From NCBI GenBank assembly GCA_902762335.1, contig CACWNZ010000001.1:1-26060 (forward strand): a DNA stretch of 26,060 nucleotides, read 5' to 3'. Position numbers and translations under genes: made by a program. Shown here piece by piece: positions 6,654-22,330 of the stretch. The notes beneath the pieces are model-generated. The model had not been told where the DNA came from. It did no database searches and was given only the letters and a program-made list of their open reading frames with translations. How positions within the stretch are numbered: the stretch's first letter is position 1; each line of letters opens with the position of its first letter. The stretch is from an uncultured Ruminococcus sp. Lineage in GTDB: Bacteria; Bacillota; Clostridia; Oscillospirales; Acutalibacteraceae.

Positions 6654-6950
6654 ATGACCATAGAACAAAAGAAGAACGGCTCAAGTGTCTGTATCGCCGT
6701 TGCGGGCAGGCTTGACACCGCCACCGCGCCCGAGCTTGAGAGCGCCATACAGGGCGTACCCGGCGATACCACCCTGCTCACCCTCGATCTTGAAAAGCTC
6801 GACTATATCTCCTCCGCAGGACTCAGGGTGCTGCTCTCGGCTCATAAGGCGATCAGCCCGAAGGGAAAGCTGAAGATCGTAAACGCCAACGAAGCCATAA
6901 CAGAGATCTTCGATATAACGGGCTTCTCGGCAATTCTTAATATCGGATAA
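6654..6950 (+). CDS. STAS-domain anti-sigma-factor antagonist (SpoIIAA/RsbV-like), copy 1
   Basis: 98 aa; GRLDTATAPELE and LDYISSAGLRVLL with the conserved phospho-acceptor Ser. Confidence 0.93.
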   Translation: MTIEQKKNGSSVCIAVAGRLDTATAPELESAIQGVPGDTTLLTLDLEKLDYISSAGLRVLLSAHKAISPKGKLKIVNANEAITEIFDITGFSAILNIG

Positions 6951-6960
6951 CGAGACTAAA

Positions 6961-7006
6961 AACACCCTCCGTCGGGCATTCGGCGGAGGGTGTTCTCATC
7001 TTTTTT
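6961..7006. terminator. Intrinsic terminator between convergent STAS and PPTase genes
   Basis: AACACCCTCCG (6961-6971) / CGGAGGGTGTT (6984-6994) stem; A-run before and T-run after. Confidence 0.85.
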
Positions 7007-7017
7007 CAGGTGACCGG

Positions 7018-7662
7018 TCATATCTGTAAGGGACCGTTCCGTATCAGCCGCATTATCCCGGCGGCATCGAGCGGTATGATATGCAGCTCCGAAAACGGCT
7101 CGGAGCAGGCGGCCGCCACCGAGCGGTTTTTCCATACCGCGGAGCGGTAATACCATATCCTGCCGTCAAAGGCAAGACTGTCCGTTTCGGGATCCACGCA
7201 CAGGGAAACCGGCTCCACGCTCATACCGAGCCCCGCCGCCTTCAGTATGCTTTCCTTTATGCTCCACAGACGATAAAAGCGCTCAGGAGGGTCAGCCTTT
7301 ATCCATTCCCGTTCTTCAGGGCAAAAAACTAAGGGCGCAAGCTTCAGGTTTTCGCTGCTTATGCCCTCGATGTCCGTTCCGAGCTCACTGCCGCCGAAGG
7401 CGATCGCGGCGCAGCCGTCGGAATGGCTCAGACTGAAAAACCTGCCCGACCGCGAATACGGCTTGCCGTATTTATTCAGGCTTATATCGGCTTCCCTCTC
7501 ACCCGCGCAGCAGGTCAGCAGAAGCCCCGCCCCCATACACATAAGTCTGTCCTCATATCTGAGATAGCGCCGCGCTTTTTTCATTCTTTCGGGAAACAGA
7601 GCCTCGCACGGCTCCTCCCCCACCCTTGCAGCCTCTTCGTTTTCGATCGTATAAATATCCAT
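7018..7662 (-). CDS. Sfp-type 4'-phosphopantetheinyl transferase
   Basis: YGKPY, FSLSHS, GTDIE, WSIKESILKAAG motifs; ATG 7662 with GGGGGAG RBS. Confidence 0.92.
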   Translation of the reverse strand: MDIYTIENEEAARVGEEPCEALFPERMKKARRYLRYEDRLMCMGAGLLLTCCAGEREADISLNKYGKPYSRSGRFFSLSHSDGCAAIAFGGSELGTDIEGISSENLKLAPLVFCPEEREWIKADPPERFYRLWSIKESILKAAGLGMSVEPVSLCVDPETDSLAFDGRIWYYRSAVWKNRSVAAACSEPFSELHIIPLDAAGIMRLIRNGPLQI

Positions 7663-7833
7663 TCTCTCAACTCCCCCGAAGCCTTCGGCTTGTAAATAAT
7701 TATACGGCAAAGTCCGCGCACGGCGCAAGTTTTTCCGATCCGTACTGTCCGCCGTGAAACGACGAAATATCATAGCATTTTGCGAGGTCCCGTGCTATAA
7801 TATATTTATCAGTATCGAAAAGGAGAGGGTAAA

Positions 7834-8610
7834 ATGAAGATCAGAAACCTGACGGCAGGAATATGCGCCGCGCTCCTGATAGCTGCGGCGGCAGGGTGCG
7901 GAGGAACAGCAAAAAACAAGAGCAGTACGGCTTCCGCTGATACAGTATCGCAGACGGCTGCATTCACCACTCCCGGAGAGCGCCTTTCCCGGCTCCCGCA
8001 GGCTTCTCCCGAATGGGTAACGAAGCTTGCTGCCGCGCAAAACGCAAAGCAGCTGTTTATCGTGGCAGGATACGAGGGCTCGACGGCATGGGTATCAATG
8101 CATGAAAGGGATACCGACGGTAATTGGAAAATGACAGCCTCTACCCCCGGCTATATCGGCAGGGCGGGACTCGGCAAGACGAAGGAGGGTGACGCAAAAA
8201 CGCCCGTAGGCACCTTCCGCTTCAACAGGGCGTTCGGTATTGCCGACGATCCCGGCTGCGCCATACCGTATATCAAGGCTGATGACGACACCTATTGGTC
8301 GGGCGACAGCAAAATAAGCTATAATCAGTTGGTCAGTCTGAAGGATCACCCCGATCTCAACACCGCCGACAGCGAGCATATCCTTGATTATCAGTATCAG
8401 TATCAATACTGTCTGAATATCAGCTACAACGAGAGCGGAACGGCGGGCGCGGGGTCCGCTATATTCCTGCACTGTCTCGGCGACAGAAAGCCCTTTACGG
8501 GAGGCTGCGTTGCGATACCCGAGGAGCAGATGTATTTCGTTATGCGGCACGTCGACCCCGAATGTGTCGTGGTTATAGATTCAATGGAAAGCCTCGGCGC
8601 GGAGTTCTGA
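7834..8610 (+). CDS. Lipoprotein with YkuD/L,D-transpeptidase-like catalytic domain
   Basis: Signal peptide with lipobox AAGC, Ser/Thr/Ala linker, KEGDAKTPVGTF, AIFLHC...TGGCVA. Confidence 0.85.
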   Translation: MKIRNLTAGICAALLIAAAAGCGGTAKNKSSTASADTVSQTAAFTTPGERLSRLPQASPEWVTKLAAAQNAKQLFIVAGYEGSTAWVSMHERDTDGNWKMTASTPGYIGRAGLGKTKEGDAKTPVGTFRFNRAFGIADDPGCAIPYIKADDDTYWSGDSKISYNQLVSLKDHPDLNTADSEHILDYQYQYQYCLNISYNESGTAGAGSAIFLHCLGDRKPFTGGCVAIPEEQMYFVMRHVDPECVVVIDSMESLGAEF

Positions 8611-8627
8611 ACGCAGATGAGCGCCCG

Positions 8628-8661
8628 AAGGGCTGCCGTACAAAGCGTTACGGCAGCCCTT
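8628..8661. terminator. Intrinsic terminator between convergent YkuD and NUDIX genes
   Basis: Perfect 13-bp inverted repeat AAGGGCTGCCGTA / TACGGCAGCCCTT. Confidence 0.8.
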
Positions 8662-8664
8662 TTG

Positions 8665-9228
8665 TCAGTCCTTTGCAGCCCAGACCGCGCAGTACGCCTG
8701 TGTTCTTGCGGCAAAGCGATGTTCCCTGAGAAGCCCGCGCACCTCTGCTTTAGTGTACCATGCGGCGCTTATCTCCTCGACCTCGGAGCTGCTTTTCTCT
8801 ATAGTACCCTCTGCCGTTCCCAGCACTACGGCGCCCGTTTCGTTTGAAAAGCCCACGGCGGAATAGCTCTCCTTCCAGGTCTCCTTTATCTCCGTCAGCC
8901 TCAGACCCGTCTCCTCTCTGAGCTCCCTTGCGGCGGCCTCGCAGAGAGTCTCGCCCTCGTCGATAAGCCCTGCGGGGAAATTATATATGCGTTCCCCCAC
9001 TGCCATGCGGAACTCGTAATTGAGCAGTATCCTCTCGCCCGCGCCGTCGTGCATTATCATGATAACGGCGTCGGGCTTTTTTTCGTTAAGCTCCGATTGC
9101 CGCTTTATATCGGGGTCACGGCTTATCATCTCGTATATTTTTTTGCCGCCGCTCTCCGTCTCGTAATCTATGCTGTAGCAGGTGATATATTCGCCCTGAT
9201 ATTCCTTTTTTATGCCCTTGAATATCAT
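8665..9228 (-). CDS. NUDIX hydrolase (ADP-ribose pyrophosphatase-like)
   Basis: Complete Nudix box GLIDEGETLCEAAARELREETGL. Confidence 0.93.
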   Translation of the reverse strand: MIFKGIKKEYQGEYITCYSIDYETESGGKKIYEMISRDPDIKRQSELNEKKPDAVIMIMHDGAGERILLNYEFRMAVGERIYNFPAGLIDEGETLCEAAARELREETGLRLTEIKETWKESYSAVGFSNETGAVVLGTAEGTIEKSSSEVEEISAAWYTKAEVRGLLREHRFAARTQAYCAVWAAKD

Positions 9229-9229
9229 A

Positions 9230-10633
9230 TCAAACGCCCCTTATCGTCTCAAAATAAATACAGTCCCCGCCGCACCTGCCTTCAAAGGCTCCGCCGCAGA
9301 CGGGCATTTCGCAGAGCTTGTGCGAATCGTCGTCATTCCGTCCTATCCTCTTGCGGACGTAGCCGATATTCCTGAAATTATCCTCCTTGCCCTTTTTTAT
9401 GGCGGCGCAGGTATTTATCCATATAACGTTGCAGTCGTCATGGGCGCACAGGTCGAAAGACTGTCGGAAATCGTAGGAGCCCGTTGAAAAGGACGGAACG
9501 ATTATCAGCGTGAGCCTGAAGCAGCGCATGAGCTGCTCCATATATTTTGTCGTAAGAAAATCCTTGCATATAAGGATAGCGATCCGCCCTATCCCCTCGT
9601 AATGCAGGATATTTACCACTAAATTGGTTTTTATATCCTCTAAAAAGGCTTCTCCGTCCTGCTCCCTGCGGTAAGGATACTGCTTGCTCTGACAGCAGAC
9701 CTCGTCTCCGAAGCGGTCAAGCACGGTGACGGTATTCATACTATTTTCCCATACGGACGGCAGTATTATGAGCGAGGGCATTTTTTCCCGCTCCGAAGGC
9801 GGCAGGGCTTTCAGTCTGCCGCGGATATGATCCCGTGTCGCGCGGTTGCCGAGCAGCTCGGGAAAGACCATGATATCGCAGCCGTTTTCGGCGGCGTGCA
9901 GAAGCCTGCGCCATATCGCGCGGTTGTCCTCATCAAAGCTGCGGCTGTCGTATTCTATGCCGAGATACTGTATATCGTCTCGGATATAGGACAGCTCGGT
10001 ATAATGCTTTTCACGGCGCAGGGGAGATACGGCGACCCTTAAGCAGCCTCGGGACGAAAGACCCTGAAAGAGTCTGTCCGACAGAAAAATATGCTTATCG
10101 ATGAGCTCTCCGAGGACAGTGTTTTCGATGAGAAGGAAATTGAACAGGAAATTATCGAGTCTGTTATATGAATTTGAAAGCCTGTGACTGCGCTCCCATA
10201 CGCAGGAGCAGCGCGGCAGAAGCCCTATACCTACGGTCTCGCGGTTGGTATTCAGCACCACCGAAAAATCATCGCGCTGATAAGCCGCTATCCTTTCAAG
10301 CAGCAGCCCCTTCATAGCCTCGTCAAGAGTCTGCGCAAGAACTATCATGGCATAAGGCTCTCCCCTGCCCGCGAGCGCCGTAATATATCCCTCAAGCGCG
10401 GAATACAGACCCTCGCAGAGATCGCCGTCCCTCAGCCGACGAACACGGAGCGTCTTCCGTTCCGCAGGCGTATCCTCAAACAGCGCAGAGACGTTTACGG
10501 AAATATCACGGAGCATTTCCTCCCTGCGCTTGCGGCTGAGACAGCTGAATCTCACAAACAGAGACTCGTCAGGGCAGGAGCTTATTATCCTTGAGCACAG
10601 CTCCGCCAATATATTGCATATCCGCGTTATCAT
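9230..10633 (-). CDS. Hypothetical protein with C-terminal carbon-nitrogen hydrolase (nitrilase-fold) domain
   Basis: 467 aa, GGAGG RBS; DIMVFPEL (Glu), QSKQ (Lys), IAILICKD (Cys) and LIIVPS in the order expected for the E-K-C triad; N-terminal half not recognised. Confidence 0.7.
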   Translation of the reverse strand: MITRICNILAELCSRIISSCPDESLFVRFSCLSRKRREEMLRDISVNVSALFEDTPAERKTLRVRRLRDGDLCEGLYSALEGYITALAGRGEPYAMIVLAQTLDEAMKGLLLERIAAYQRDDFSVVLNTNRETVGIGLLPRCSCVWERSHRLSNSYNRLDNFLFNFLLIENTVLGELIDKHIFLSDRLFQGLSSRGCLRVAVSPLRREKHYTELSYIRDDIQYLGIEYDSRSFDEDNRAIWRRLLHAAENGCDIMVFPELLGNRATRDHIRGRLKALPPSEREKMPSLIILPSVWENSMNTVTVLDRFGDEVCCQSKQYPYRREQDGEAFLEDIKTNLVVNILHYEGIGRIAILICKDFLTTKYMEQLMRCFRLTLIIVPSFSTGSYDFRQSFDLCAHDDCNVIWINTCAAIKKGKEDNFRNIGYVRKRIGRNDDDSHKLCEMPVCGGAFEGRCGGDCIYFETIRGV

Positions 10634-10690
10634 GACCGTTCCCCTCCGTTCTCGGACGATCTGCCGCCCGCGTGTTTTGGGACTGCTCTA

Positions 10691-10719
10691 ATTGTAGCAT
10701 TTTCGGCGGGGTATATCAA
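10691..10719 (-). promoter_or_regulatory. Candidate sigma-A promoter for the nitrilase-fold/NUDIX pair
   Basis: Minus strand TTGATA-17 nt-TACAAT with TG extension. Confidence 0.65.
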
Positions 10720-10777
10720 CGGAAAAACGGGATACCCGTAAAAATTTTTGCTGCGTTGTGTATATATACGGATCTTC

Positions 10778-10806
10778 TTGCACATTGTCCAAATTTATGG
10801 TATGAT
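10778..10806 (+). promoter_or_regulatory. Candidate sigma-A promoter for the NRPS operon
   Basis: TTGCAC (10778-10783), 17 nt, TATGAT (10801-10806) with TG extension; AAGGAG RBS before ATG 10843. Confidence 0.75.
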
Positions 10807-10842
10807 AATATCATTAAATTACCGTATCAAAGGAGTTTTCTT

Positions 10843-13800
10843 ATGAGCAGTATTATCGAAAGAATACAAAAAAACATAGCGGACTATCCCGACCACGAAG
10901 TAATCGTCGATCAGGGCGAGAACAACAGCTTCACCTACCGTGAGTTCGATCTTTATGCCGCAAGAGTCGCCGCAAGGCTCAAAAAGCAGGGTGTAACAAG
11001 AGGTGATTTTGTCACCATCGAGCTTCCGAGAAACAAGGAGTATATCGCCTCAATGTACGCCGTATGGAGAGTCGGAGCGGCATTTGCGCCCCTGTCTCCG
11101 GCATATCCGGCGGAGCGTCTTGAATTTATCCGCAATGACTGCGACGCAAAGGCGGTCATCAATGAAAAATTCCTGCGTGACATCGAAAACGAGGAGCCGT
11201 TTTATGATATTGTGACACCCCGTCCGGAGGACCCTTCACTGCTGATATATACCTCGGGCTCTACGGGAAAGCCGAAGGGCGTTCTGCATACCCACGCGGG
11301 CATAGAGGATTCCATTGCAAGATACTCCGACTACGCAAAGCCGCCTATGGGCTTCCGCGCGGCACTCGGCGCGCCGTTTACCTTTGTCGCATCGGTACAG
11401 GGCGTATTTGCTCCGCTTTGTTCGTGTCTCACGGCGTATCTCATGCCCTATCAGGCAATGCGCGACCCCGTTCTCCTTGCCGATTATATCTATGAAAACA
11501 AGATAAACCGCACCTTTATCAGCCCGAAAATGCTCAAGGTGTTCAAGCCCAAGGGCGATTCACTCAAGGTGGTCTATACGGGCAGTGAGCGCGTCAGCAA
11601 TACCTACAGCGACGACTTTGAGATAATCGTCAGCTACGGTCAGACGGAATCCGCAGGCGCCGTAATGATGTTCAAACTTGACAGGAAATACGAAAACACG
11701 CCGATCGGCAAGCCTATCGGAGATATACGCATACATATACTTGACGAAAACGGCAGCGAAGCCGACGAGGGCGAGCTTTGTCTTGCGGGAATATTTGCGG
11801 AGTGCTACCTCAATCTTCCCGAGCAGACCGCCAAGACCTTTATCGACAATCCCTTTGCCGACGAGGACGGCTATAAAAAGCTGCTCAGAACAGGAGATAT
11901 CGTCAAAAAGGGTGAGGACGGCAATATCATCTATCTCAACCGCAGGGATTGGATGGTCAAGATAAACGGTCAGCGCGTTGAGCCGGGTGAAATAGAGGCT
12001 ATCATCAAGAGCACCGACGGCATACATGACGCCGCGCTCAAGGACTTCAAGAATCAGTACGGTCAGGTATATCTTGTCGCCTATTACGTTGAGAGCTCAC
12101 CCGTCAATGCCGATGATATAAAGGCGGCTATCTCCAAAAAGCTGCCGCCCTATATGATACCCGCCTTCTTTGTGCGTCTTGACAAGCTGCCCGTAAACGC
12201 AAACGGAAAGCTGGACAGAAACGCCCTTATCGCTCCCGAGGCAGGCAGCTTCAAGACCGACTATATCGCTCCCGAAACCGATATGCAGAAGGTGCTGTGT
12301 TCCGCCTTTGAAGCCGTTCTCGGTGTTGAGAACGTGGGCATTGACGACGATTTCTTCGCTCTCGGCGGCGATTCTATCAAGTGCGCCATGACTGCGGCAA
12401 AGTGCGGCGTGTATAAAATTTCCACCGCAGATATCTTTGCCGGAAAGACTCCCCGCATGATAGAGCGTCTGCTCATTCAGAAGGCGTCTGCAAAGAGCGT
12501 TGTCAAAAAGGAAAAGAAAGCAAGGATATATCCGCTGACCCCCTCGGAAAGAGGAATGTATCTTGAACAGAAGCTGAACGAAAAGTCGGTAGTCTATAAT
12601 CTGAATATCGCCGCTATCATAAAAGGCTCAGATATTGAAAAGATAAAAGAAGCTCTTAATGCCGTTTTCAGGGCTCACGAGGCGTTCTACTCCTATTACG
12701 GCGAAGAAAACGGTCTGCCCGTTCGTATTCTCTCCGACAAGCTGCCCGAGATCAAGGAAAAGACCGCCGCAACCCGTGAGGAAGTCATTGACATAATAGA
12801 CAGCTATGCGGAGCCCTTCGACCTCAATACGGGCATTCCCGTCAGACCTACTCTCTATTCCGTCGCGGACGGCAGCGTGATACTTCATCTCGCGATACAT
12901 CATATCGCCTTTGACGGCGGCTCGGCAAAGACCTTTGTAAGCGAGCTGATCGACGGTCTTAACGGCAAAGAGATCACCGCCGCCGAGATAGACCTCTCCG
13001 ACCTCTACAGCGACAGCCTTGAAGCAAAATATGAGAGCGGTCTGAAATATTACAGAGAGATTTTCTCGGACGGCGTACCCGTGAACGAAATGCCCACAAA
13101 GGGCAAGCGTCCGAAGGTGCATCCGCTTTCCGACCGTCAGATCGACTTTGATATAGACAACGAAAAGCTGAAAGCAATCGACAATACCGCCCGCAAATTC
13201 AGCGTGACGGAGTTTGAGCTGATCTTCTCGGCTGTGTCCATGACCCTCGGAAAATACACCTCGTCCGAGGACGTGGTTTTAGGCATTCCCACAAATATGC
13301 GCCCCAACGGCGCCGATAACGTCATCGGTATGTTCGTCAACACCGCTCCCGTCCGTGTACGCCCGAAGCGTAACGCGGAAATTCAGGATTATTTGCAGAG
13401 TGTCAGCGAAGCCGTGCGCAGCGTGACATACGGCGCATATCTGCCCTTTGAGGACGTTGTTGCCGAATTTGTAAAGCAACGTGACGAGTCCCGCAACCCA
13501 ATGTTTGACGTGAGCGTCAACTTCATGTGGAATCCGCCAGCCTACAACAAGGACGGTCTGAGCGTTGAGATGTATTCGCCTCTCCAGAAGATGAGCCGCG
13601 ATATCGGCATCGTCATACGCAAGGGCGCAAAGGGTCTGCACTTTATGGTGCAGTATTCCTCGGAGCTTTTTGAGGATACCCTGATAGAGAACTTCATCGA
13701 GCAGCTCAGATCGGCAATCGATCTGCTCGGCACGGCAGCAACGGTAAGAGATGCTCTTGTCCTTCCCGAAAAGCAGAAGGAACAGCTTGAGAAATTCGCC

Positions 13801-16773
13801 GTTGAAGCCGAAGAGGAAATACCCGTAACGCTGCTGCACAAGCTCTTTGAAAAGAGCGTTTCCGAAAACAAAGACAAGACCGCGCTCATCGCAAAGGACT
13901 GCACACTTACATACGATGAACTGAACAAGAGGGCAAATATCGTTGCCCATAACCTGATAGACAGGGGTATAAAAACAGGAGACAGCGTAGCCCTTCTTCT
14001 GCCGAGAGAAAGCTGCTTCTTTGCCTGTATGTTCGGCGTTAACAAGGCGGGAGCGGCGTTCATACCCTGCGACCCGCAGTACCCCGCAGACAGGATAAAC
14101 CATATCATTACCGACTCCGAAGCATCATTTATCATCACCACAGCCGACAAGCTTGCGGATTATCCCGCCGACAAGGCTATCAATGTTGAGGACATCACAA
14201 AGGGCGCTCAGACGGAGAATCCCGATGTAGAGATGAGCGACCGGGAGCTTGCGTATATGATCTATACCTCAGGCTCCACCGGAAAGCCCAAGGGCGTTAT
14301 GCTCCGGCACAGAGGTATCTGCAACTATCTCATGCCCCACCCCGCAAATTCACATATCTATTATCTGAAAAACAATGTCAGCACCTATCTTTCCGTGACG
14401 ACCGTCTCCTTTGATATGTCATTTAAGGAACACACGGCAGCCTTCTGCAACGGCAAGACCCTTGTGTTTGCCGGCGAGGACGAGATGAATGACCCCCGCG
14501 CCCTTGCCGAGCTTATGGAAAAGTACAATGTTGACTGTATAAACGCGACCCCGTCAAGACTCCAGCAGTATCTTGAATATACTCCGTTCAAGACTGTCCT
14601 TTCAAAGTGCCGTCTTGTCATGTCCGGCGGCGAGGGATATCCCATGTCCCTGCGCGACACAATAAAGGAATGTTCAAAAGAAATAAAAATAGTCAATACC
14701 TACGGTCCTACCGAGATCACCGTCTCCTGTAACGCGGCGGACCTTACAAACGCTTCTCAGGTCACCGTCGGCAGACCGCTGCTGAATTATAACGAGGTCA
14801 TCGTTGATAAATTCGGAGACGTATCGCCCTACGGCGTTGTGGGTGAGCTTTATATCGGCGGCGTGGGAGTTGCAAAGGGATACCGCAATCTGCCCGAAAA
14901 GACAGCGCAGGCATTTGTTGAGTTCGGCGGTCAGCGGATGTACCGCTCCGGCGACTATGCAAAGTGGGACAAGGACGGAAACGTGCATATCCTCGGCAGA
15001 CTTGACAGTCAGGTCAAGCTCCGTGGACTGCGTATAGAGCTGGGCGAAATTGAAGGGCTTATCGCACAGCAGCCCCACATCAAGAAGGTCGCAGTAATCA
15101 TCCGCAAGCTCAGCGGTCAGGAGAATCTCTGTGCCTACTTTACCGCCGATACCGAAATTGATATAAATGCACTCAGGGATGAGCTGAAAAAGCACCTGAC
15201 CCATTATATGATACCCACTGCATATCTCCAGATGAACGAAATGCCCATGACCGCCAACGGCAAGACCGACACCAAAATGCTGCCCGACCCCGTTCCCGTT
15301 AGCCTCGGAGAATACGTCGCTCCCGCTAACAAGACCGAGGAGTTCTTCTGCGAGTCCTTCAGAAAGGTGCTTAAGCTTGACCGTGTGGGCGCTACCGATG
15401 ACTTCTTTGAGATAGGCGGCACCTCGCTGATCGTTACTTCAGTCGTACTTGACGCGTCCGAAAACGGCTTCAGCATAACCTACGGCGACGTATTCAAATA
15501 TACCACCCCGAGAGCCCTTGCTGAGCTCTTCAAGGACGGAGAGGTCAACGACACAAACAAGCTGTTTGATTTTGAGGGCTATGACTATTCAAAGATAAAC
15601 GAGCTGCTGTCAAAGAACAACGTTGAAGCCTTCCGCAGCGGAGAAATAAAAGAGCTCGGGAATGTACTCATCACCGGCGCAACCGGCTATATGGGCGCTC
15701 ACCTGCTTGCTGAGTACCTCAAGCGTGAAAGCGGCAAAGCATACTGTATGGTGCGAAAGGGCAGGTTTGATTCCGCCGCCGAGCGCCTTGAGAACATGAT
15801 GTTCTATTACTTCGGCTCTGATCTTGAAGAAGAATTCAAAAGCCGCGTTGAGGTGCTGAACGGCGACGTTACCGACTACAAATACTTTGAGCCCTTTGAG
15901 ACTCTGCCGATAAACACCGTGTTCAACTGCGCGGCAAACGTAAAGCACTTCTCCAACGGCACAGACATCGAAGACATCAACGTAGGCGGCGCCGTCAACT
16001 GCATAAAGCTCTGCCGGAAACTGAGCGCAAGGCTGATACACTTTTCCACCGTTTCCGTTTCGGGAACAACAGACGACATTTCCAAGCTCAGCCGCCGCGA
16101 GCTTGACGAGCAGACGCTCTATTACGGTCAGACCCTCGACAACAAATACACCTCCTCAAAGCTCATGGGTGAGCGCATGGTGCTTGAAGCCGCCGCAGAA
16201 GGACTTGACGCAAAGGTCATTCGCGTAGGCACTCTTGCCGCCCGCGAATCCGACGGCGAGTTCCAGATAAACTTCCTCACCAACAACTTTATGGGACGTC
16301 TGCGCTCCTACAGCCTGCTCGGCTGCTTCCCCTACAGCATGATAGAGAATCAGGTATGCATGGGACCGATAGACCGTTCCTGCGAAGCCTTCCTCAAGCT
16401 TGCAAAGACCCCGAAGGAATGCTGCGTGTTCAATGCGGTAAACAACCACACACTTCCGCTTGGCGATATTATCCGTCAGATGAACGAAAACGGCAGCAAG
16501 GTAGATTTTGTAGAGTACGAGGAATTTGCCGCGGCTCTGCACGAAGCCCAGAAAGACCCGGACAAAGCCGCAATTCTCTCAAGTATGACGGCGTATATGA
16601 ACACCGCTCACGGCAAAAAGATAGTCGCCCTGCCCTTCAACGCCCACTATACCACACAGATACTCGCCCGCATGGGCTTCTTCTGGAATGCAAGCAACGA
16701 AAAATACGTGGGTGACTTCATCAACGTACTGCGCGGCTTCCTGTTCTTCCGCAAGGACAATCTCAAAAGATAA
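10843..16773 (+). CDS. Bimodular non-ribosomal peptide synthetase, A-T-C-A-T-R (terminal thioester reductase)
   Basis: 1976 aa from ATG 10843; two YTSGSTGKPKG A3 motifs; T domains GGDSI (Ser 12373) and GGTSL (Ser 15424); C domain HHIAFDG (12898-12918); R domain ITGATGYMG and YTSSK. Confidence 0.97.
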   Translation: MSSIIERIQKNIADYPDHEVIVDQGENNSFTYREFDLYAARVAARLKKQGVTRGDFVTIELPRNKEYIASMYAVWRVGAAFAPLSPAYPAERLEFIRNDCDAKAVINEKFLRDIENEEPFYDIVTPRPEDPSLLIYTSGSTGKPKGVLHTHAGIEDSIARYSDYAKPPMGFRAALGAPFTFVASVQGVFAPLCSCLTAYLMPYQAMRDPVLLADYIYENKINRTFISPKMLKVFKPKGDSLKVVYTGSERVSNTYSDDFEIIVSYGQTESAGAVMMFKLDRKYENTPIGKPIGDIRIHILDENGSEADEGELCLAGIFAECYLNLPEQTAKTFIDNPFADEDGYKKLLRTGDIVKKGEDGNIIYLNRRDWMVKINGQRVEPGEIEAIIKSTDGIHDAALKDFKNQYGQVYLVAYYVESSPVNADDIKAAISKKLPPYMIPAFFVRLDKLPVNANGKLDRNALIAPEAGSFKTDYIAPETDMQKVLCSAFEAVLGVENVGIDDDFFALGGDSIKCAMTAAKCGVYKISTADIFAGKTPRMIERLLIQKASAKSVVKKEKKARIYPLTPSERGMYLEQKLNEKSVVYNLNIAAIIKGSDIEKIKEALNAVFRAHEAFYSYYGEENGLPVRILSDKLPEIKEKTAATREEVIDIIDSYAEPFDLNTGIPVRPTLYSVADGSVILHLAIHHIAFDGGSAKTFVSELIDGLNGKEITAAEIDLSDLYSDSLEAKYESGLKYYREIFSDGVPVNEMPTKGKRPKVHPLSDRQIDFDIDNEKLKAIDNTARKFSVTEFELIFSAVSMTLGKYTSSEDVVLGIPTNMRPNGADNVIGMFVNTAPVRVRPKRNAEIQDYLQSVSEAVRSVTYGAYLPFEDVVAEFVKQRDESRNPMFDVSVNFMWNPPAYNKDGLSVEMYSPLQKMSRDIGIVIRKGAKGLHFMVQYSSELFEDTLIENFIEQLRSAIDLLGTAATVRDALVLPEKQKEQLEKFAVEAEEEIPVTLLHKLFEKSVSENKDKTALIAKDCTLTYDELNKRANIVAHNLIDRGIKTGDSVALLLPRESCFFACMFGVNKAGAAFIPCDPQYPADRINHIITDSEASFIITTADKLADYPADKAINVEDITKGAQTENPDVEMSDRELAYMIYTSGSTGKPKGVMLRHRGICNYLMPHPANSHIYYLKNNVSTYLSVTTVSFDMSFKEHTAAFCNGKTLVFAGEDEMNDPRALAELMEKYNVDCINATPSRLQQYLEYTPFKTVLSKCRLVMSGGEGYPMSLRDTIKECSKEIKIVNTYGPTEITVSCNAADLTNASQVTVGRPLLNYNEVIVDKFGDVSPYGVVGELYIGGVGVAKGYRNLPEKTAQAFVEFGGQRMYRSGDYAKWDKDGNVHILGRLDSQVKLRGLRIELGEIEGLIAQQPHIKKVAVIIRKLSGQENLCAYFTADTEIDINALRDELKKHLTHYMIPTAYLQMNEMPMTANGKTDTKMLPDPVPVSLGEYVAPANKTEEFFCESFRKVLKLDRVGATDDFFEIGGTSLIVTSVVLDASENGFSITYGDVFKYTTPRALAELFKDGEVNDTNKLFDFEGYDYSKINELLSKNNVEAFRSGEIKELGNVLITGATGYMGAHLLAEYLKRESGKAYCMVRKGRFDSAAERLENMMFYYFGSDLEEEFKSRVEVLNGDVTDYKYFEPFETLPINTVFNCAANVKHFSNGTDIEDINVGGAVNCIKLCRKLSARLIHFSTVSVSGTTDDISKLSRRELDEQTLYYGQTLDNKYTSSKLMGERMVLEAAAEGLDAKVIRVGTLAARESDGEFQINFLTNNFMGRLRSYSLLGCFPYSMIENQVCMGPIDRSCEAFLKLAKTPKECCVFNAVNNHTLPLGDIIRQMNENGSKVDFVEYEEFAAALHEAQKDPDKAAILSSMTAYMNTAHGKKIVALPFNAHYTTQILARMGFFWNASNEKYVGDFINVLRGFLFFRKDNLKR

Positions 16774-16785
16774 GGGGGCTGAAAT

Positions 16786-18519
16786 ATGAAACGCAGAGGA
16801 GATCTCCTCAACGAAAAATACCGCAGTCTGTTATGGGCGACCCTCGCAATGACGGCATCAAACTATCTCTCCGGGATACTTGACGGCATTATGGTGGGTC
16901 AGATGCTCGGTACCGTCGAGCTTTACGCTATCAACCTGACCACCTGTATCATCTTCCTGCGGAGCATCCCCATAGCCATGTTCACCTTCGGCGGCAACAC
17001 CCTGTCGGTCATCAGAAAAAGCAAGCGCGACGGACAGGGCGCCGATACCGTTTTTACACTGTCCTTCTGGGCGGGAATACTTTCCACTATACTTATTTCG
17101 ATCATCGGTCTTGCGGTGATAACCCCCACGGCGGAGCTTCTTGCTCAGGGAAAACAGGAGCTTGTCGGGCTCGTTATCGACTATCTCCTGCCCCTTTGGA
17201 TACTGACGCCATTGGTGGCGGCGGTAAATCAGACAGCCGCCTACGCCCGTACGGACGGTATGCGAAAATTGGCGACCGCCCTTCCCATTGTGGCAAACGT
17301 GGTCAATCTTGGCTGCGACGGACTGTATATGGGCGTATTCCATTGGGGCGTTGCGGGTGCGGGCTGGGCGACCGTGACCGGCTATATTGTCGGAACGGCG
17401 ATGACACTTATTTACTTCAAGTCAAAAAAGCGGACGGTGCATTTTACAAAGGAAGCTCTGAAAAAGCTCAGGGAGCTCGGAAAGATATTCGGTGTTGGTC
17501 TCCCCTCTGCCCTGATCTATGTGTGCAACTTCCTCAGGCTGTTCTTTACAAACGCCATAATACTTTCGGCGACGGGCGTTGTGGGCGGCAAGATAGCCTC
17601 TGTTTCCTTCTCACTGAACAGCCTTGCATTCATCTTTGTTGAGGGCGCGTCTATGACCCTTCTGCCGATACTCGGCGCGCTCTACGGCGAAAAGGATACC
17701 AACGGACAAAAGCTTACCCTGCGCTACGGCATGATCATCACGGTCGGTCTTTCGGTCGCAGTGTTCATCCTGTCAGAACTTCTGCCGGTACAGCTTGCGT
17801 CCATGTACGGACTTACCGACCCTGCGGTCACAGAGGTATTTGCGGCGACCTTCCGCATCTTCTCAATAAATATCCCGATACTCGGCGTTATCTACGTCAT
17901 GCGCTCGTTCTTTCAGGCGACGAAGCAGAGAGGGCTTGCAAATCTGCTCGTCATGCTGGACGGCGTGCTTACGATAGTCCCTCTCATGTATTGGTTTTCC
18001 CATTATGATATCTATTGGCTGTGGATGTCCTTCCCGGTTTCAAAGGCATTAACGGTAATCATCACATTTGCAGCAATGCTTATCGGCAAAAGGGTAAAGA
18101 AAAAGAAAAACCTGCTCGGCATTGAGGAGCAGGACGGGATCGCTTTCGACTTTACCATAGACAATGAGGTATCGCAGGCAATAAAGGCGTCAGAGGAAGC
18201 TATAAGCTTCTGTCAGGAAAAGTCTCTTCCCGAAAACACGGTAAACGCCGTCGGCGTAACGGTAGAGGAGCTTTGCCACAATATTGCAACCTATGCCCGC
18301 TCATCCACCAACAAGACCGTTGACGTCTGTGTGCGTATCTTTGACGACAAGGTGAACATCCGCCTGCGTGACAACGGGGTGGAGTTTGACCCGACAGATT
18401 ACATCGACACGAGCGGAAAGCGCATAACAGGGCTTACGCTTGTCAGAAAGCTCAGCTCGTCGATCAGCTATAACCGTGTTTTAGGCTTCAACGTGACAAA
18501 CGTAACGATAAATTATTGA
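16786..18519 (+). CDS. MATE-family efflux transporter fused to a C-terminal RsbW-like HATPase domain
   Basis: About 450 aa multi-TM region with MATE-type motifs (LPIVANVVNLGCDGLYMGVFHWGVAGAGWAT; LPILGALYGEKD), then EELCHNIATYA and RDNGVEFDP. Confidence 0.9.
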   Translation: MKRRGDLLNEKYRSLLWATLAMTASNYLSGILDGIMVGQMLGTVELYAINLTTCIIFLRSIPIAMFTFGGNTLSVIRKSKRDGQGADTVFTLSFWAGILSTILISIIGLAVITPTAELLAQGKQELVGLVIDYLLPLWILTPLVAAVNQTAAYARTDGMRKLATALPIVANVVNLGCDGLYMGVFHWGVAGAGWATVTGYIVGTAMTLIYFKSKKRTVHFTKEALKKLRELGKIFGVGLPSALIYVCNFLRLFFTNAIILSATGVVGGKIASVSFSLNSLAFIFVEGASMTLLPILGALYGEKDTNGQKLTLRYGMIITVGLSVAVFILSELLPVQLASMYGLTDPAVTEVFAATFRIFSINIPILGVIYVMRSFFQATKQRGLANLLVMLDGVLTIVPLMYWFSHYDIYWLWMSFPVSKALTVIITFAAMLIGKRVKKKKNLLGIEEQDGIAFDFTIDNEVSQAIKASEEAISFCQEKSLPENTVNAVGVTVEELCHNIATYARSSTNKTVDVCVRIFDDKVNIRLRDNGVEFDPTDYIDTSGKRITGLTLVRKLSSSISYNRVLGFNVTNVTINY

Positions 18520-18532
18520 CAGGGGGTATGCT

Positions 18533-18967
18533 ATGAAACAGGATATACCCGATACGAAAAGCGTTCCTGCGGAAAGCCGCATATTTACGCTTAACAGGCA
18601 GACCTTTGAGGACGTGATAAGCTATATCGAAGAACGCTGCCGCGCCCTCGGCTGCGGTGAAAAGGCGCTGAGCCGTATTTCCGTGTCATCATCGGAAATT
18701 CTTGCAAATATTGATTCCTACGCCTACGAAAACGGCGGTGAGGTCGAAATAACGATCTCCCGCAGCGGCAGAAGGCTCACGATCACCTTCAAAGACAGCG
18801 GCGCGCCCTTTGACCCGCTCAGCGTAAAGCCTCCCGACGTGACGGCTCCGCTGAGCGAGCGTGAACCGGGCGGACTCGGAATATTTATCGTCAGAAAGCT
18901 GATGAGCAGTGTCAGATATGAATACGCTGACGGTCAGAACGTTCTGACCGTAGAAAAGGAGCTCTGA
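18533..18967 (+). CDS. Anti-sigma-factor-type Ser/Thr kinase (RsbW/SpoIIAB-like HATPase)
   Basis: N box EILANIDSYAY, G1 DSGAPFDP, G2 PGGLGIFIVRKLM. Confidence 0.92.
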   Translation: MKQDIPDTKSVPAESRIFTLNRQTFEDVISYIEERCRALGCGEKALSRISVSSSEILANIDSYAYENGGEVEITISRSGRRLTITFKDSGAPFDPLSVKPPDVTAPLSEREPGGLGIFIVRKLMSSVRYEYADGQNVLTVEKEL

Positions 18968-18968
18968 G

Positions 18969-20141
18969 ATGAAGGATACGAAGATCATTATTGCGGGCGA
19001 CCTTATGCCTATGCCCTGCAATTACGGGCTGTTTTCCGACGGAGACGCGCAGGCTCTTTTCGGAAAAAGACTCTGCGATATGTTTGCTTCGGCGGACTAC
19101 CGGATATGCAATTTTGAAGGCTGTTTTACCGACGGCGACAATCCCATTGAAAAGACAGGTCCTGTGATAAAGGCACCGACTTCAACCATTAAGGCGATAA
19201 AGGCTCTCGGCATAAACTATGCCACCCTCGGCAACACCCACTCAATGGACAACGGCAGACAGGGCTATCTTGATACCTGCCGTACCCTTGAAGAAAACGG
19301 CATAGGCTATTTCGGCTGGGGCGACGATATCAATTCCGTCAGAACTCACGTCAGACTGACGGACTGCGGCAGGCGCATCGTACTTTATAACGTGACCGAG
19401 CTGTTTGAGAACGCTCCGGGTGAGAACACCCCGGGTGTGAATCTCTATGATGAATACCGTGTCTGTCAGGAACTGAAAGAGCTTAAAGCGGAGTGTGACC
19501 TTCTTATCGTGTTCTATCACGGCGGCATTGAAGGGTCGCATTATAACAGCGAGGTCATGCGGAAACGCTTTCACCGTATGGCGGACAGCGGCGCAGACGT
19601 GATAATTTCACAGCATACCCACGCGATCGGCGAAGAGGAGCATTATAACGGCTCATATCTTCTCTACGGTCAGGGGAATTTCTGCTTCCATTTCCGCAGT
19701 GAGGTCACCCCGCTTCTTGCCGAGGGACTCGTGCTTGAGATAGACCTCAACGACAGCGGCTTCACGGCAAAGCCCCACCGCATTATCCGCACCGAAAAGG
19801 GCTGCGTCTATGATGAAAAGCAGGAGCTTGATGAGTTCTATGCCCGAAGCAGAATGCACGACGCGCTTCTCAATGGCGACAGGGCGGCAAAAGAGGAGTT
19901 TGAACGGAACTTTTCAGAGGACTGCAAAAGCTGGCTGACCCAGTTCCTTCTGACCTTCAGGGGCATTGACCCCGAGATCGCAAAATTACGCAAGGAGCTT
20001 TCACCGTCAGAATTAAGGGATCATCTTATCTCCCTCTACCCCAGACCATATCTGACAGCTCTTCTGACGTTTCTGAAAAATGAAGAATTCAACGAGATCG
20101 GCAGACGGCTCCTGAGCGATCTGCTCAAAGAAAAACAATAA
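18969..20141 (+). CDS. CapA/PgsA-family metallophosphoesterase-fold protein
   Basis: IIIAGD, CNFEG, LGNTHSMD, FYHGG, GADVIISQHTH, YGQGNFCF motifs; starts 1 nt after the kinase stop. Confidence 0.85.
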   Translation: MKDTKIIIAGDLMPMPCNYGLFSDGDAQALFGKRLCDMFASADYRICNFEGCFTDGDNPIEKTGPVIKAPTSTIKAIKALGINYATLGNTHSMDNGRQGYLDTCRTLEENGIGYFGWGDDINSVRTHVRLTDCGRRIVLYNVTELFENAPGENTPGVNLYDEYRVCQELKELKAECDLLIVFYHGGIEGSHYNSEVMRKRFHRMADSGADVIISQHTHAIGEEEHYNGSYLLYGQGNFCFHFRSEVTPLLAEGLVLEIDLNDSGFTAKPHRIIRTEKGCVYDEKQELDEFYARSRMHDALLNGDRAAKEEFERNFSEDCKSWLTQFLLTFRGIDPEIAKLRKELSPSELRDHLISLYPRPYLTALLTFLKNEEFNEIGRRLLSDLLKEKQ

Positions 20142-20155
20142 AGGAGAAAACAACA

Positions 20156-20452
20156 ATGACGATAAAGACTTATGAAAAGGACGGCTCACCCGTCGTTGCA
20201 CCCGAGGGAAGGATCGACCACGTTACGGCTGCCGAATTTGAACAGAAGATAAACGAGGTCGGCAGGGACAGCGATAAATTGACTCTTGACTTGGCGGGCG
20301 TAGAATACGTCAGCTCCGCCGCACTCAGAGTTATTCTGAAGGCAAACGATATGGTAAAGGACAAGGGCGGCATGATCATCATAAACGTAAACCGCAAGGT
20401 CATGGAGATCTTCAACGTAACGGGCTTTTCCGATTATCTTGACATCAGATGA
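20156..20452 (+). CDS. STAS-domain anti-sigma-factor antagonist, copy 2
   Basis: 98 aa; EGRIDHVTAAEFE and VEYVSSAALRVIL; AAGGAG RBS. Confidence 0.93.
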   Translation: MTIKTYEKDGSPVVAPEGRIDHVTAAEFEQKINEVGRDSDKLTLDLAGVEYVSSAALRVILKANDMVKDKGGMIIINVNRKVMEIFNVTGFSDYLDIR

Positions 20453-20491
20453 CAGCACGCCCCTAAAGCGCAAAGGAGCTTCAATAACAAA

Positions 20492-20533
20492 ACCGCCGAC
20501 AAAGCAGGCAGAATGACCCGTTTTGTCGGCGGT
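20492..20533. terminator. Bidirectional intrinsic terminator between the NRPS operon and the PP2C gene
   Basis: ACCGCCGACAAA (20492-20503) / TTTGTCGGCGGT (20522-20533), with A-rich flank before and T-rich flank after. Confidence 0.75.
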
Positions 20534-20542
20534 ATTTTTGTT

Positions 20543-22234
20543 TTATGCATCATGATCTCCGTCAGCCGCTTTGTCGTCGGCAGACTTTCCCGCGCCCCTG
20601 TACTCTATGCAAAGCATCGTAAGATCGTCGAACTGCTCGGCATCCTTTACGAATTCGTTTACGGAGCGTCTGACGTTTTTGAGTATCTCCCCGGGGGCGG
20701 CGGAGCTCTGCTCGTTGAGCGCCCCGATCATGCGGTCGATACCGAACTGCTCCTGAGCCTTATCCGTTGCCTCGGGAACGCCGTCCGTATATAAAAACAG
20801 CTTGGACCCCGGGCTGAGCCGTATTTCGTATTCCTTGTAGCTCATACCGCTTATACCGCCCAGAACGAAGCCGTGCTTATCCCTGTAAAGCTCAAACTCT
20901 CCGTCGGGCTTCATCAGTACGGGATATTCATGCCCCGCGTTGGCAGCCGTCAGCCTTCCGGTAGAAAGCTCAAGTATCCCCAGCCAGACCGTGACGAACA
21001 TATCCTCACGGTTATTGGCGCAGACCGCGGCATTGGTGTCGGTAAGTATCTGCGCGGGCGATTTTCCGCTCATGGCGTTGTTCGCTAAAATAATCTTGGA
21101 GGACATCATAAACAAAGCCGCAGGTACTCCCTTGCCGGATACGTCCGCCATTACGATGCAGAGATGGTCGTCGTCCACAAGGAAAAAGTCGTAAAAATCA
21201 CCGCCTACCTCCTTTGCAGGGTCCATAGCCGCATAAATATCAAATTCCGCGCGGTCGGGAAAGGGCGGAAAGACACCCGGCAGCATATCGGCCTGTATAC
21301 GCGCGGCAAGGGAAAGCTCAGTGCTTATGCGTTCCTTTTCGGCTGTAGCCTTTGTCAGATCCTCCACGTACCGTATTATCCTCTCCTCCATACGGTCGAT
21401 AGATGAAGCAAGCAGGCTGATCTCGTCGCGGGTCCTTATCTTTTCCTCAAGCTTTTTGTCCGCGGCGGTGTTATCCGAAGCAAAGCGGCCCGCCTCGTTT
21501 GCAATCTGCTTGACGGGGCGCAGGATAACGCGGTTAAGATAGATCGACTGTCCTATGACGACAAAGATGAGCAGACCGAGCATAGAAAAGAACACCTTGC
21601 CCAAATAGGTGTTGCGGACGTTTACAAGGCTGTCCATTTGCCGCTGAACGCAAAGGATCGCCGTCGTTTTGCCGCTTTTGTCCCTTATCGGTATCATTGC
21701 CGTTATATGGGGGTCGGTCTCGATATAGCCCTGATCTCTTATGACAAGCTCATTATCCGAGCCTTCCTCATACAGTCTGCGGTATTTTTCTTTGTATTCA
21801 TCGTTCGTCGTAGGGCGGACGTAGCCGAACTCATAGCGGGTGTAGCTGCTGTTTTCGTTGATAGTTGAAAACAGGAACGTGATATTATCGTAGGTCTTAT
21901 CCGGCCGTATAACGTAAATAAAGGTCGAGCCCGAGGAATTGCACAGAGTCTCAAGCTTATCCGATACCTGAGTGTATTCCCGGGTTTTGCCGCCGCTTGC
22001 GTAGTAGTCGTCTATCCTGTCGCTGTCGAGGATCATAATGGCAGTATCGGCGGTATGCACGGCGCCGTCATAATACTGCTCCATAAGAGCCTGCGTAAAG
22101 CCGTTAAAGCCTATTATGCTTACAATGACCGAAAAGACGATCATCAGAACGGCAAGACCCGAAATGCTCTTGAATATTATGCTTACCCTCGGACCCCTGC
22201 GCTTTTTTTCCGGGGTTTTATTTTTTTCCGCCAA
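20543..22234 (-). CDS. Membrane sensor PP2C/SpoIIE-type Ser phosphatase (RsbU-like): TM-extracytoplasmic sensor-TM-HAMP-PP2C
   Basis: EVGGDFYDFF, MADVSGKGVPAALFM, NAGHEYP, LYTDGVPEA, DDLTML; two TM helices and a HAMP segment; TTG 22234 has a GGAGG RBS (alternative ATG at 22270). Confidence 0.93.
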   Translation of the reverse strand: MAEKNKTPEKKRRGPRVSIIFKSISGLAVLMIVFSVIVSIIGFNGFTQALMEQYYDGAVHTADTAIMILDSDRIDDYYASGGKTREYTQVSDKLETLCNSSGSTFIYVIRPDKTYDNITFLFSTINENSSYTRYEFGYVRPTTNDEYKEKYRRLYEEGSDNELVIRDQGYIETDPHITAMIPIRDKSGKTTAILCVQRQMDSLVNVRNTYLGKVFFSMLGLLIFVVIGQSIYLNRVILRPVKQIANEAGRFASDNTAADKKLEEKIRTRDEISLLASSIDRMEERIIRYVEDLTKATAEKERISTELSLAARIQADMLPGVFPPFPDRAEFDIYAAMDPAKEVGGDFYDFFLVDDDHLCIVMADVSGKGVPAALFMMSSKIILANNAMSGKSPAQILTDTNAAVCANNREDMFVTVWLGILELSTGRLTAANAGHEYPVLMKPDGEFELYRDKHGFVLGGISGMSYKEYEIRLSPGSKLFLYTDGVPEATDKAQEQFGIDRMIGALNEQSSAAPGEILKNVRRSVNEFVKDAEQFDDLTMLCIEYRGAGKSADDKAADGDHDA

Positions 22235-22330
22235 CCGATATCCCTCCGATGATAAAAGTGTGAGCCTCATTTATACGCGGGCGGATAAGATACGCCGTAA
22301 TACCGCACAGAAGCTCCTTTTTCTCCTTCT

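Follow-up and report, generated by a model that had tools for sequence, protein, structure and literature searches.

A MATE exporter with a kinase-like tail is linked to partner-switch genes and to reductase-ending peptide synthetases in gut and rumen anaerobes

What does a partner switch control when no sigma factor is encoded beside it? This question is raised by a 26,060-nucleotide stretch from an uncultured Ruminococcus sp. (assembly GCA_902762335.1, contig CACWNZ010000001.1; hereafter, the window), in which a putative operon headed by a nonribosomal peptide synthetase (NRPS) also encodes a MATE exporter fused to a kinase-like domain and parts of a switch of the Bacillus type. In such a switch, a kinase sequesters a sigma factor, which is usually encoded in the same operon. 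The operon of the window consists of five plus-strand genes, namely, those for the NRPS (1976 aa, positions 10843 to 16773), the MATE-HATPase_c_2 fusion (16786 to 18519), a free RsbW-like Ser kinase (144 aa, 18533 to 18967), a PGA_cap (CapA-like) protein (390 aa, 18969 to 20141), and, as the last gene, a single-domain STAS protein (STAS_dn, 98 aa, 20156 to 20452). A gene for a sensor PP2C phosphatase (HAMP-SpoIIE, 20543 to 22270, minus strand) converges on it. A first-pass annotation made from the sequence had listed these genes; when six-frame open reading frames (ORFs) were scored against Pfam and NCBIfam, every gene that it named was supported by matches, and its gaps of 12, 13, 1, and 14 nt between the five genes were borne out. 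It was also right that the PP2C gene is present, but this ORF extends to 22270 and not to 22234. We find that the system is real, conserved, and experimentally uncharacterized, and that the window holds one member of a cassette widespread in gut and rumen anaerobes. The phosphorylation switch probably controls the release of a compound at the pump and not via a sigma factor.

Linkage of the exporter with switch genes and with peptide synthetases

The gene neighborhood was examined from both the exporter side and the NRPS side; related loci and genomes are cited here by our L and G numbers. The MATE-HATPase fusion forms a family with 340 representatives (E ≤ 1e-30, library clustered at 50% identity), most of which aligned over the full length. 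All nine relatives looked up at 43 to 65% identity to either of the two exporters of this genome adjoin a reductase-ending NRPS, and eight of these nine loci (all but L080) also carry STAS and a SpoIIE-HATPase_c_2 fusion or split pair. Gene order varies among the nine: STAS stands before or after, as does the phosphatase-kinase, and some loci hold two STAS genes. On the NRPS side, alignment of the T-R (thiolation-reductase) end gave 547 relatives in species-representative genomes, and the best 80 were annotated with custom profiles. At least one of MATE-HATPase, STAS, PP2C, and a further HATPase was found in the available flank of 59 of these 80 loci. Among the 31 well-flanked loci, with at least 3 kb upstream and at least 4 kb downstream, 29 carried at least one signaling gene (MATE-HATPase in 22, STAS in 25, PP2C in 18, and PGA_cap in 13), and 11 had MATE-HATPase, STAS, and PP2C together. 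The first-pass annotation had supposed that the NRPS is coupled to MATE-HATPase and to STAS, PP2C, and kinase genes and had suggested such a neighborhood search; both sides of the search agree with it, and homologous NRPSs mostly carry the signaling genes rather than lack them.

The NRPS-side loci span several Bacillota orders, Bacteroidales, and one Methanimicrococcus metagenome-assembled genome (MAG). On the contig of this Methanimicrococcus sp. MAG (L166), an NRPS with a C-A-R end (condensation, adenylation, reductase), MATE-HATPase, PP2C, STAS, a small HATPase, and a phosphopantetheinyl transferase (PPTase) occur together, which fits the transfer into methanogens noted for Methanobrevibacter ruminantium; the locus is a candidate known from a MAG bin. 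As judged from these sequences, the linkage survives gene-order shuffles and transfer between phyla and is not chance. The spread of the cassette among Bacillota, Bacteroidota, and methanogens of the same habitats suggests that it was selected as a unit.

The exporter also occurs with switch genes where no NRPS is present. In an order-level sample of 301 genomes, full-length MATE-HATPase fusions were found in ~23 genomes of about ten families, and 27 loci were fetched. STAS was present in 15 of these, PP2C in 16, and another HATPase_c_2 in 17, with at least one of them in 19; only one of the 27 held an NRPS. The idea, based on this single locus, that NRPS linkage is peculiar to the family of the window was rejected, because the relatives of intermediate identity and the NRPS-side search show a large NRPS-linked clade. 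In a FastTree tree of 81 MATE-HATPases, which has long branches and a sampling partly driven by the NRPS query, 51 of the 53 rows scored as NRPS-linked fall into a single clade (100% local support), to which both copies of this MAG belong and which excludes the other modules. A common order without NRPS begins with STAS and MATE-HATPase, continues with one or two small enzymes, and ends with sensor PP2C and a kinase of ~136 to 150 aa. The enzymes are GNAT acetyltransferases, SAM methyltransferases, LPG_synthase_C-like transferases, an oxidoreductase, and a GH3 amido-synthetase with radical-SAM/SPASM. Modules of MATE-HATPase, STAS, sensor PP2C, and kinase without NRPS were seen in L046 to L066, and L049 also has LytTR/GHKL two-component genes. 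These non-NRPS loci may represent a portable regulated-exporter module for various small molecules. The pump, and not the NRPS, is the constant partner of the switch genes, since MATE-HATPase with STAS, PP2C, and kinase occurs also without NRPS.

STAS directly abuts MATE-HATPase in 18 of 86 loci, and eight of the 18 are minimal cassettes, in which the available flank contains neither another HATPase nor a PP2C. One of the minimal cassettes is a second locus in the source MAG itself (1.99 Mb, 321 contigs, 80.7% complete, 3.25% contamination), of which the window is contig 1. On contig C63 (L014:337-11121), an NRPS of 2898 aa with the architecture A-T-C-A-T-C-A-T-R is followed by a MATE-HATPase_c_2 protein of 595 aa, which is 27.6% identical to that of the window, and then by the abutting STAS gene; no PP2C, separate kinase, or PGA_cap gene was found on this contig. 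All three single-domain STAS genes of the MAG, and all three of its HATPase_c_2 matches above the Pfam cut-off, lie in the NRPS loci of the window and C63. Because the C63 locus lacks both a separate kinase and a PP2C, the three STAS proteins and two exporters of this genome may share a single enzyme of each kind.

The kinase-like tail and the output of the switch

In the MATE-HATPase protein, residues 1 to ~440 form the MATE part (Pfam MatE in two matched stretches) and residues ~450 to 577 an RsbW/SpoIIAB-like tail (Pfam HATPase_c_2). An AlphaFold2 (AF2) model with a pLDDT of 86.5 and a pTM of 0.78 confidently shows a 12-helix bundle with an alpha/beta tail of the Bergerat type, and Foldseek placed PfMATE (6fhz, TMt 0.86) first, with DinF-BH and NorM also ahead of MurJ and Wzx. 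The tail residues E494, E495, N499, D529, and G531 are invariant across the NRPS-linked clade. In 83 MATE-fused HATPase_c_2 domains, the EE and RD.G motifs are kept and the ATP lid is ~8 residues shorter, without GGLG, whereas free and PP2C-fused HATPase_c_2 kinases keep E..N, D.G, and GGLG. Nucleotide binding by the tail is plausible because N499, D529, and G531 are invariant, and phosphotransfer by it is doubtful. The short lid in the fused tails versus the full lid in the separate kinases would fit a docking role for the former and a catalytic role for the latter. Adjacency suggests that the MATE protein exports the NRPS product.

The free 144-aa kinase (Pfam HATPase_c_2, E 4.3e-21, 75.7 bits) has the N box SEILANI, a DSG motif, and a GGLG lid, and its sole PDB sequence match is RsbW (6m36). 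STAS_dn (Pfam STAS, E 9.4e-16) has RsbV (6m36_B) and SpoIIAA as its best PDB matches. A second single-domain STAS gene of the window, STAS_up (6654 to 6950, plus strand, 98 aa; Pfam STAS, E 6.9e-15), lies upstream with its own promoter-like site and a strong terminator-like hairpin 3' of it (6961 to 6994, plus strand; 15 pairs, 9 G-C). The two STAS proteins are 44% identical and share the motif Y-[IV]-S-S-A-[GA]-L-R, which reads YISSAGLR in STAS_up. Y51, S54, and R58 are kept in 72 of 72 module STAS proteins, and S54 aligns with S58 of SpoIIAA in an S-x-G-L register. The best matches of STAS_up (50 to 59%) are STAS proteins of non-NRPS MATE-HATPase modules, and nothing in the five close relatives searched matched it at more than 50%.

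We propose that STAS phosphorylation gates the exporter through the kinase-like MATE tail, a reading to which we assign a probability of about 0.5. The 144-aa kinase would phosphorylate the conserved S54 of the STAS proteins, and the sensor PP2C would remove this phosphate on a signal from outside the cell or in the membrane. Unphosphorylated STAS would dock on the kinase-like tail and change the activity of the pump; the tail would thus stand where the captor of the sigma factor stands in Bacillus, and release of the NRPS product would be controlled at the protein level, without a sigma factor. We infer the binding partners, the direction of control, the signal, and the substrate in this scheme, and the pairing of STAS with the tail is suggested by the fact that STAS adjoins MATE-HATPase, including in the minimal cassettes. 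The first-pass annotation had proposed feedback of the switch onto the exporter or the synthetase; the exporter is the better supported of the two targets, since a kinase-like domain is fused to the MATE protein and the module exists without NRPS, and the synthetase option is less so. A wider picture can be drawn in which an anti-sigma module serves as the tail of a MATE protein, STAS-gated secretion stands under an extracytoplasmic sensor phosphatase, one kinase/phosphatase pair sets three STAS proteins and two NRPS exporters, and a portable cassette has been captured by NRPS, GNAT, GH3, and radical SAM gene sets across bacteria and methanogens. This picture as a whole is tentative, at odds falling just short of even.

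The main rival reverses the roles: the exporter would be the input, its fused HATPase acting as an active kinase that reports substrate flux and phosphorylates STAS, and STAS would act on the NRPS, the PPTase, or the PGA_cap protein. The invariance of N499, D529, and G531 in the NRPS-linked clade agrees with this possibility, as do the minimal cassettes, which hold just STAS, MATE-HATPase, and NRPS and have no other kinase in the available flank, and the many loci (including L078, L079, and L083 to L085) in which STAS lies directly upstream of the NRPS. The lid shortened by ~8 residues and lacking GGLG in all 83 fused domains, as opposed to the lid kept in the separate kinases, and the complete separate or PP2C-fused kinase that most loci also encode make it unlikely. 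An action on the synthetase itself, with unphosphorylated STAS or the kinase binding the NRPS or PPTase and the MATE tail serving merely as a membrane anchor, appears improbable. STAS is often translationally close to the NRPS start, a PPTase recurs in loci of the family, and the PP2C ortholog in another genome (G303) adjoins a PPTase-like gene, all of which such an action would explain; the same STAS/PP2C/kinase set, however, accompanies MATE-HATPase where the NRPS is absent, beside GNAT, methyltransferase, GH3, and radical-SAM genes, so that the shared element is the pump.

The proposed gating of the exporter dispenses with a sigma factor, as did the first-pass annotation, which had seen none in view and had taken the switch to be sigma-independent; the wider survey upholds this view. 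No Sigma70_r2 match was found in the window or in C63, and the 16 sigma-70 region 2 matches of the MAG all lie elsewhere. When the loci were searched with profiles seeded with 12 sigma ORFs of this MAG, a sigma-70 ORF was found in only two of 122 loci, >5 kb from the NRPS in both. A classical anti-sigma arrangement, in which the 144-aa kinase sequesters a sigma factor that is encoded elsewhere and transcribes the cluster, would account for the complete set of RsbW motifs in the kinase and for RsbW as its only PDB match, and it draws on the incompleteness of a MAG with 16 sigma-70 region 2 matches and on the spoIIAB-sigF-like pair of a relative. That pair, however, consists of separate adjacent genes away from the NRPS locus, the window and C63 have no sigma gene, related loci almost never have one, and most relatives carry the kinase as a fusion with a membrane PP2C, a form hardly expected of a protein that captures a sigma factor. 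We consider a distant sigma target the less economical reading and quite improbable.

Several observations weigh against gating of the exporter through its tail. The tail keeps N499, D529, and G531 and may be an active kinase or an ATP-dependent sensor, and the direction of signaling could be reversed. Eight of the 27 order-level MATE-HATPase loci have no nearby switch gene. The NRPS query and the exporter query did not sample the loci independently, and there are many related genomes among them. PGA_cap recurs with the switch genes, yet the model does not explain it. The assembly of the 80.7%-complete MAG may lack a sigma partner or additional switch genes, and the complete genome of Ruminococcus sp. 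JL13D9 contains a spoIIAB-sigF-like pair, in which a gene for a 150-aa HATPase_c_2 protein is immediately followed by a sigma gene, far from its NRPS locus; no sigma neighbor was found at the other switch modules of JL13D9.

Origin of the free kinase and of the sensor phosphatase

Thirteen related loci share the order NRPS, MATE-HATPase, a third gene X, PGA_cap, and STAS. Identity to the window is 83 to 96% for the NRPS (L001 to L012), 79 to 94% for MATE-HATPase, 68 to 88% for PGA_cap, 61 to 76% for STAS_dn, and 56 to 74% for the kinase domain. In most relatives, gene X encodes a protein of ~600 aa with a region of 5 to 6 transmembrane (TM) segments, a PP2C domain, and HATPase_c_2, and only its last 144 codons remain in the window, L002, and L013. 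The kinase gene of the window has the ribosome-binding site and the ATG-AAA start of the fusion, and homology resumes at the linker between PP2C and kinase. By this comparison, the free kinase arose through an in-frame deletion of codons ~3 to 455 (about 450) of a PP2C-kinase fusion gene; the deletion is derived, because the MATE-HATPase of the window is nested in the clade carrying the fusion. Genomes in which the deletion occurs encode a sensor PP2C as a protein of its own.

The sensor PP2C of the window (Pfam SpoIIE, 173.5 bits) is laid out as TM, a 157-aa outside domain (PAS/Cache-like), TM, HAMP (23.8 bits, just below the cut-off of 25), and PP2C. Its metal-binding residues D358, D376, D496, D548, and D549 are invariant. 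The AF2 model (pLDDT 80) shows a TM helix, the outside domain, a second TM helix, a long helix, and the PP2C domain, with RssB, Rv1364c, and SiaA (TMt 0.83), and also SpoIIE, as the nearest folds in Foldseek. In the model, the outside domain (residues ~64 to 212) consists of a helix and five to six strands, and from this topology only we call it PAS/Cache-like. A Cache family assignment was not accepted, with dCache_1 at 17.7 bits against a cut-off of 45 and a fold search dominated by the PP2C domain.

The arrangement of TM, a loop of 124 to 341 aa (mostly 145 to 175), TM, and PP2C is the commonest architecture among module PP2Cs (44 of 66), whereas the PP2C fusions of the nearest relatives of the window have a 5-6 TM region and no ectodomain. 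Full-length homologs of the window PP2C (38 to 45%) are PP2Cs of other MATE-HATPase modules, and its sensor half is most similar (28 to 36%) to the sensors of L082 and of non-NRPS modules. An ortholog with 67% identity was found only in G303, the genome of L002, which was the other genome with the deletion among those searched; the four genomes of the fusion type in that search gave 39 to 42% over the full length. In G303, a PPTase-like gene is the direct neighbor of the ortholog (L077:2423-4870), and the NRPS operon is on a different contig; therefore, adjacency of the PP2C to the operon is not conserved. The possibility that the convergent PP2C is a chance neighbor is weakened by its full-length homologs in MATE-HATPase modules, although its position is still not conserved. 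After loss of the fused PP2C, we infer, a general ectodomain-type phosphatase would have taken over, perhaps together with STAS_up.

These comparisons bear on the closed loop of the first-pass annotation, in which the NRPS product, once exported, would bind the PP2C ectodomain and act in autoinduction. The ectodomain is confidently modeled with a PAS/Cache-like fold, a kind that binds small ligands, and its architecture is the commonest of the family, as autoinduction might lead one to expect. Sensing of the NRPS product by this domain nevertheless went unsupported: the sensor of the window is closest to sensors of modules without NRPS, relatives with an 83 to 96% identical NRPS use a 5-6 TM sensor without ectodomain, and the orthologous PP2C in G303 is unlinked to the operon. 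We therefore regard autoinduction by the product as unlikely.

Flanks of the operons in the relatives are without STAS_up, the PPTase, and the NUDIX, 467-aa, and YkuD genes that lie upstream in the window. The upstream STAS and PPTase genes of the first-pass annotation are genuine, but their position is not conserved in the nearest relatives. Particular to the member in the window are a free kinase left by the deletion, an ectodomain PP2C that was probably recruited, an additional STAS, and a second cassette in the same genome.

The synthetase, the flanking genes, and known systems

Translation of the NRPS begins at ATG 10843, which is preceded by an AAGGAG ribosome-binding site, and not at the first GTG of the ORF (10672). 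Pfam places in it two AMP-binding, two PP-binding, one Condensation, and one NAD_binding_4 domain, and the motifs are intact, with GGDS and GGTS in the T domains, HHIAFDG (HHxxxDG) in the C domain, and the Rossmann motif TGATGYMG (GxxGxxG) and catalytic YTSSK (YxxxK) in the R domain. Domains and motifs bear out the A-T-C-A-T-R architecture given in the first-pass annotation. A two-module architecture that ends in T-R is that of the reductase-terminated peptide-aldehyde NRPS class (AusA and the gut Clostridia type), and the product is predicted from this class to be a peptide aldehyde or a pyrazinone derived from the aldehyde. AusA of Staphylococcus aureus has the same (C-)A-T-C-A-T-R architecture, but the window NRPS is not an AusA ortholog, reaching 1048 bits with the equivalog NF047350 against a cut-off of 2500. 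The reductase NRPS clusters of gut and rumen bacteria, such as that for ruminopeptin in Ruminococcus bromii, share with the window the architecture with an intact R domain, the habitat, and the taxa; such gut clusters are reportedly the work of the Fischbach laboratory, and ruminopeptin that of Schneider et al. In Ruminococcoides intestinale (L154), HATPase, STAS, MATE-HATPase, and NRPS genes occur together. The di- and tripeptide aldehyde and pyrazinone chemistry of the gut reductase-NRPS clusters has been summarized (PMC12327764); peptide aldehydes of gut and rumen Clostridia are reported there as protease inhibitors, and the predicted product of the ruminopeptin study could not be isolated from cultures.

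The Sfp-type 4'-phosphopantetheinyl transferase (251 aa, 7018 to 7773, minus strand; Pfam ACPS, E 2.6e-13) reached none of the NCBIfam equivalog cut-offs. A PPTase beside an NRPS in L101 shares 47% identity with it, and PPTases recur in the NRPS-family loci L107, L120, L122, L137, L164, and L166; no close counterpart was found in the five close relatives searched, where identity reached only 31 to 35%. The PGA_cap protein (Pfam PGA_cap, 147.5 bits, cut-off 27) has a metallophosphoesterase fold, with the lasso-peptide epimerase MslH (8gq9) as the nearest solved relative, and its motifs GD, GNtH, yHgG, HtH, and GNFCF, of metallophosphoesterase type, are conserved in 21 homologs. Neither poly-γ-glutamate (PGA) synthesis nor an MslH label was retained for it: the protein has no TM segment, the window has no capB/capC (pgsB/pgsC) genes, and the MslH epimerase equivalog score is 48.8 against a cut-off of 700. 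PGA_cap recurs beside PP2C-HATPase and STAS in L047, L116, L117, L125, L128, and L133. In L125, L128, and L133 (Lachnospiraceae, Eubacterium), the block of PGA_cap, PP2C-HATPase, and STAS lies ~5 kb from the NRPS; therefore, PGA_cap travels with the switch genes and not with the synthetase. One NRPS locus (L082:455-17087) contains two pairs of STAS and SpoIIE-HATPase and a third phosphatase, 5TMR_LYT-SpoIIE, and both pairs are flanked by Metallophos (PF00149) genes, which echo the PGA_cap gene of the window.

The operon of the window is preceded by a 209-bp intergenic region (10634 to 10842) with promoter-like sites on both strands, which separates it from a divergent gene for a 467-aa protein without Pfam or NCBIfam match (9230 to 10633, minus strand). 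One nucleotide further on lies a NUDIX hydrolase gene (8665 to 9228, minus strand), and a YkuD-domain protein is encoded at 7834 to 8610 on the plus strand. The promoter-like sites at 10779-10814 (plus strand) and 22359-22331 (minus strand) are consensus matches only. Between the convergent STAS_dn and PP2C genes, at about 20483 to 20531, a G+C-rich hairpin (CCGCCGACAAA...TTTGTCGGCGG) with T runs on both strands and terminator-scan hits on both strands is a likely bidirectional terminator. The left flank of the window holds core Firmicute genes on the minus strand (mutS2, recO, era, dgkA, ybeY, and phoH). At 22484 to 25463, on the minus strand, two proteins are encoded, one LPXTG-anchored and with Flg_new_2 repeats, the other with PAS and HD_5 domains. 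In L002, an ortholog of the PAS-HD gene (70% identity) directly follows STAS on the operon strand, and in the window this gene is on the opposite strand; therefore, the region 3' of the operon has been rearranged. The nearest loci are those of the completely sequenced isolates Ruminococcus sp. JL13D9 and JE7B6 and of rumen MAGs that bear the label Acutalibacteraceae or 'Ruminococcus sp.'.

The switch genes belong to the same three families as RsbU/RsbP-RsbV-RsbW and SpoIIE-SpoIIAA-SpoIIAB of Bacillus (single-domain STAS, HATPase_c_2 Ser kinase, and SpoIIE-type PP2C). Unlike the Bacillus switches, the present locus lacks a sigma factor, MATE carries a second kinase fold with a truncated lid, the genome encodes two or three STAS proteins, and the kinase of the relatives is fused to the phosphatase. 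The parts of the partner switch are known here from their genes, and Ser phosphorylation of STAS and mutually exclusive binding are predicted. SiaABCD of Pseudomonas aeruginosa and SypE/SypA of Vibrio fischeri likewise have a sigma-independent output, and the PP2C fold of the window is near that of SiaA, as it is to RssB and Rv1364c. PP2C-kinase fusions like those of the relatives are known in Rv1364c of Mycobacterium tuberculosis and in SypE of V. fischeri. SLC26/SulP anion transporters with a C-terminal STAS domain also join a transporter to one half of a STAS/anti-sigma pair; here, by contrast, the kinase-like half is part of the transporter, which is a MATE protein, and STAS stands alone. 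The physical coupling of SLC26/SulP transporters to their STAS domain has been reviewed (PMC8256260).

The first-pass annotation knew of no characterized system of this composition. The gene set had in fact been described: Leahy et al. 2010 (PMC2812497) reported genes for two serine phosphatases, for an anti-sigma factor antagonist, and for a MatE protein of efflux around the NRPS mru0068 of M. ruminantium M1, together with a separate cluster of PPTase, phosphatase, antagonist, and kinase, and suggested that they might serve sensing, regulation, and export. The mru0068 locus presents the same gene set at the annotation level; a MatE fusion to a kinase-like domain is not mentioned, and no comparative or experimental analysis is given there. 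On a partner switch linked to MATE, nothing was found beyond Leahy et al. 2010, and the claim stands in so far as the literature searched contained no experimental characterization of this system.

If export is gated as proposed, a transporter would join the few outputs of partner switching that are not sigma factors. Between them, SiaABCD, SypE/SypA, and Rv1364c act on SiaD, which is a diguanylate cyclase, on biofilm polysaccharide, and on SigF, and neither in the literature searched nor to our knowledge is a transporter carrying a kinase-like domain such an output; as far as we know, this would be the first case of a MATE pump regulated through a fused signaling domain. If the switch holds off secretion or synthesis, the STAS Ser, the kinase, and the sensor PP2C would be handles with which to turn such clusters on, by S54A or S54D variants, deletion of the kinase, or ligands of the ectodomain.

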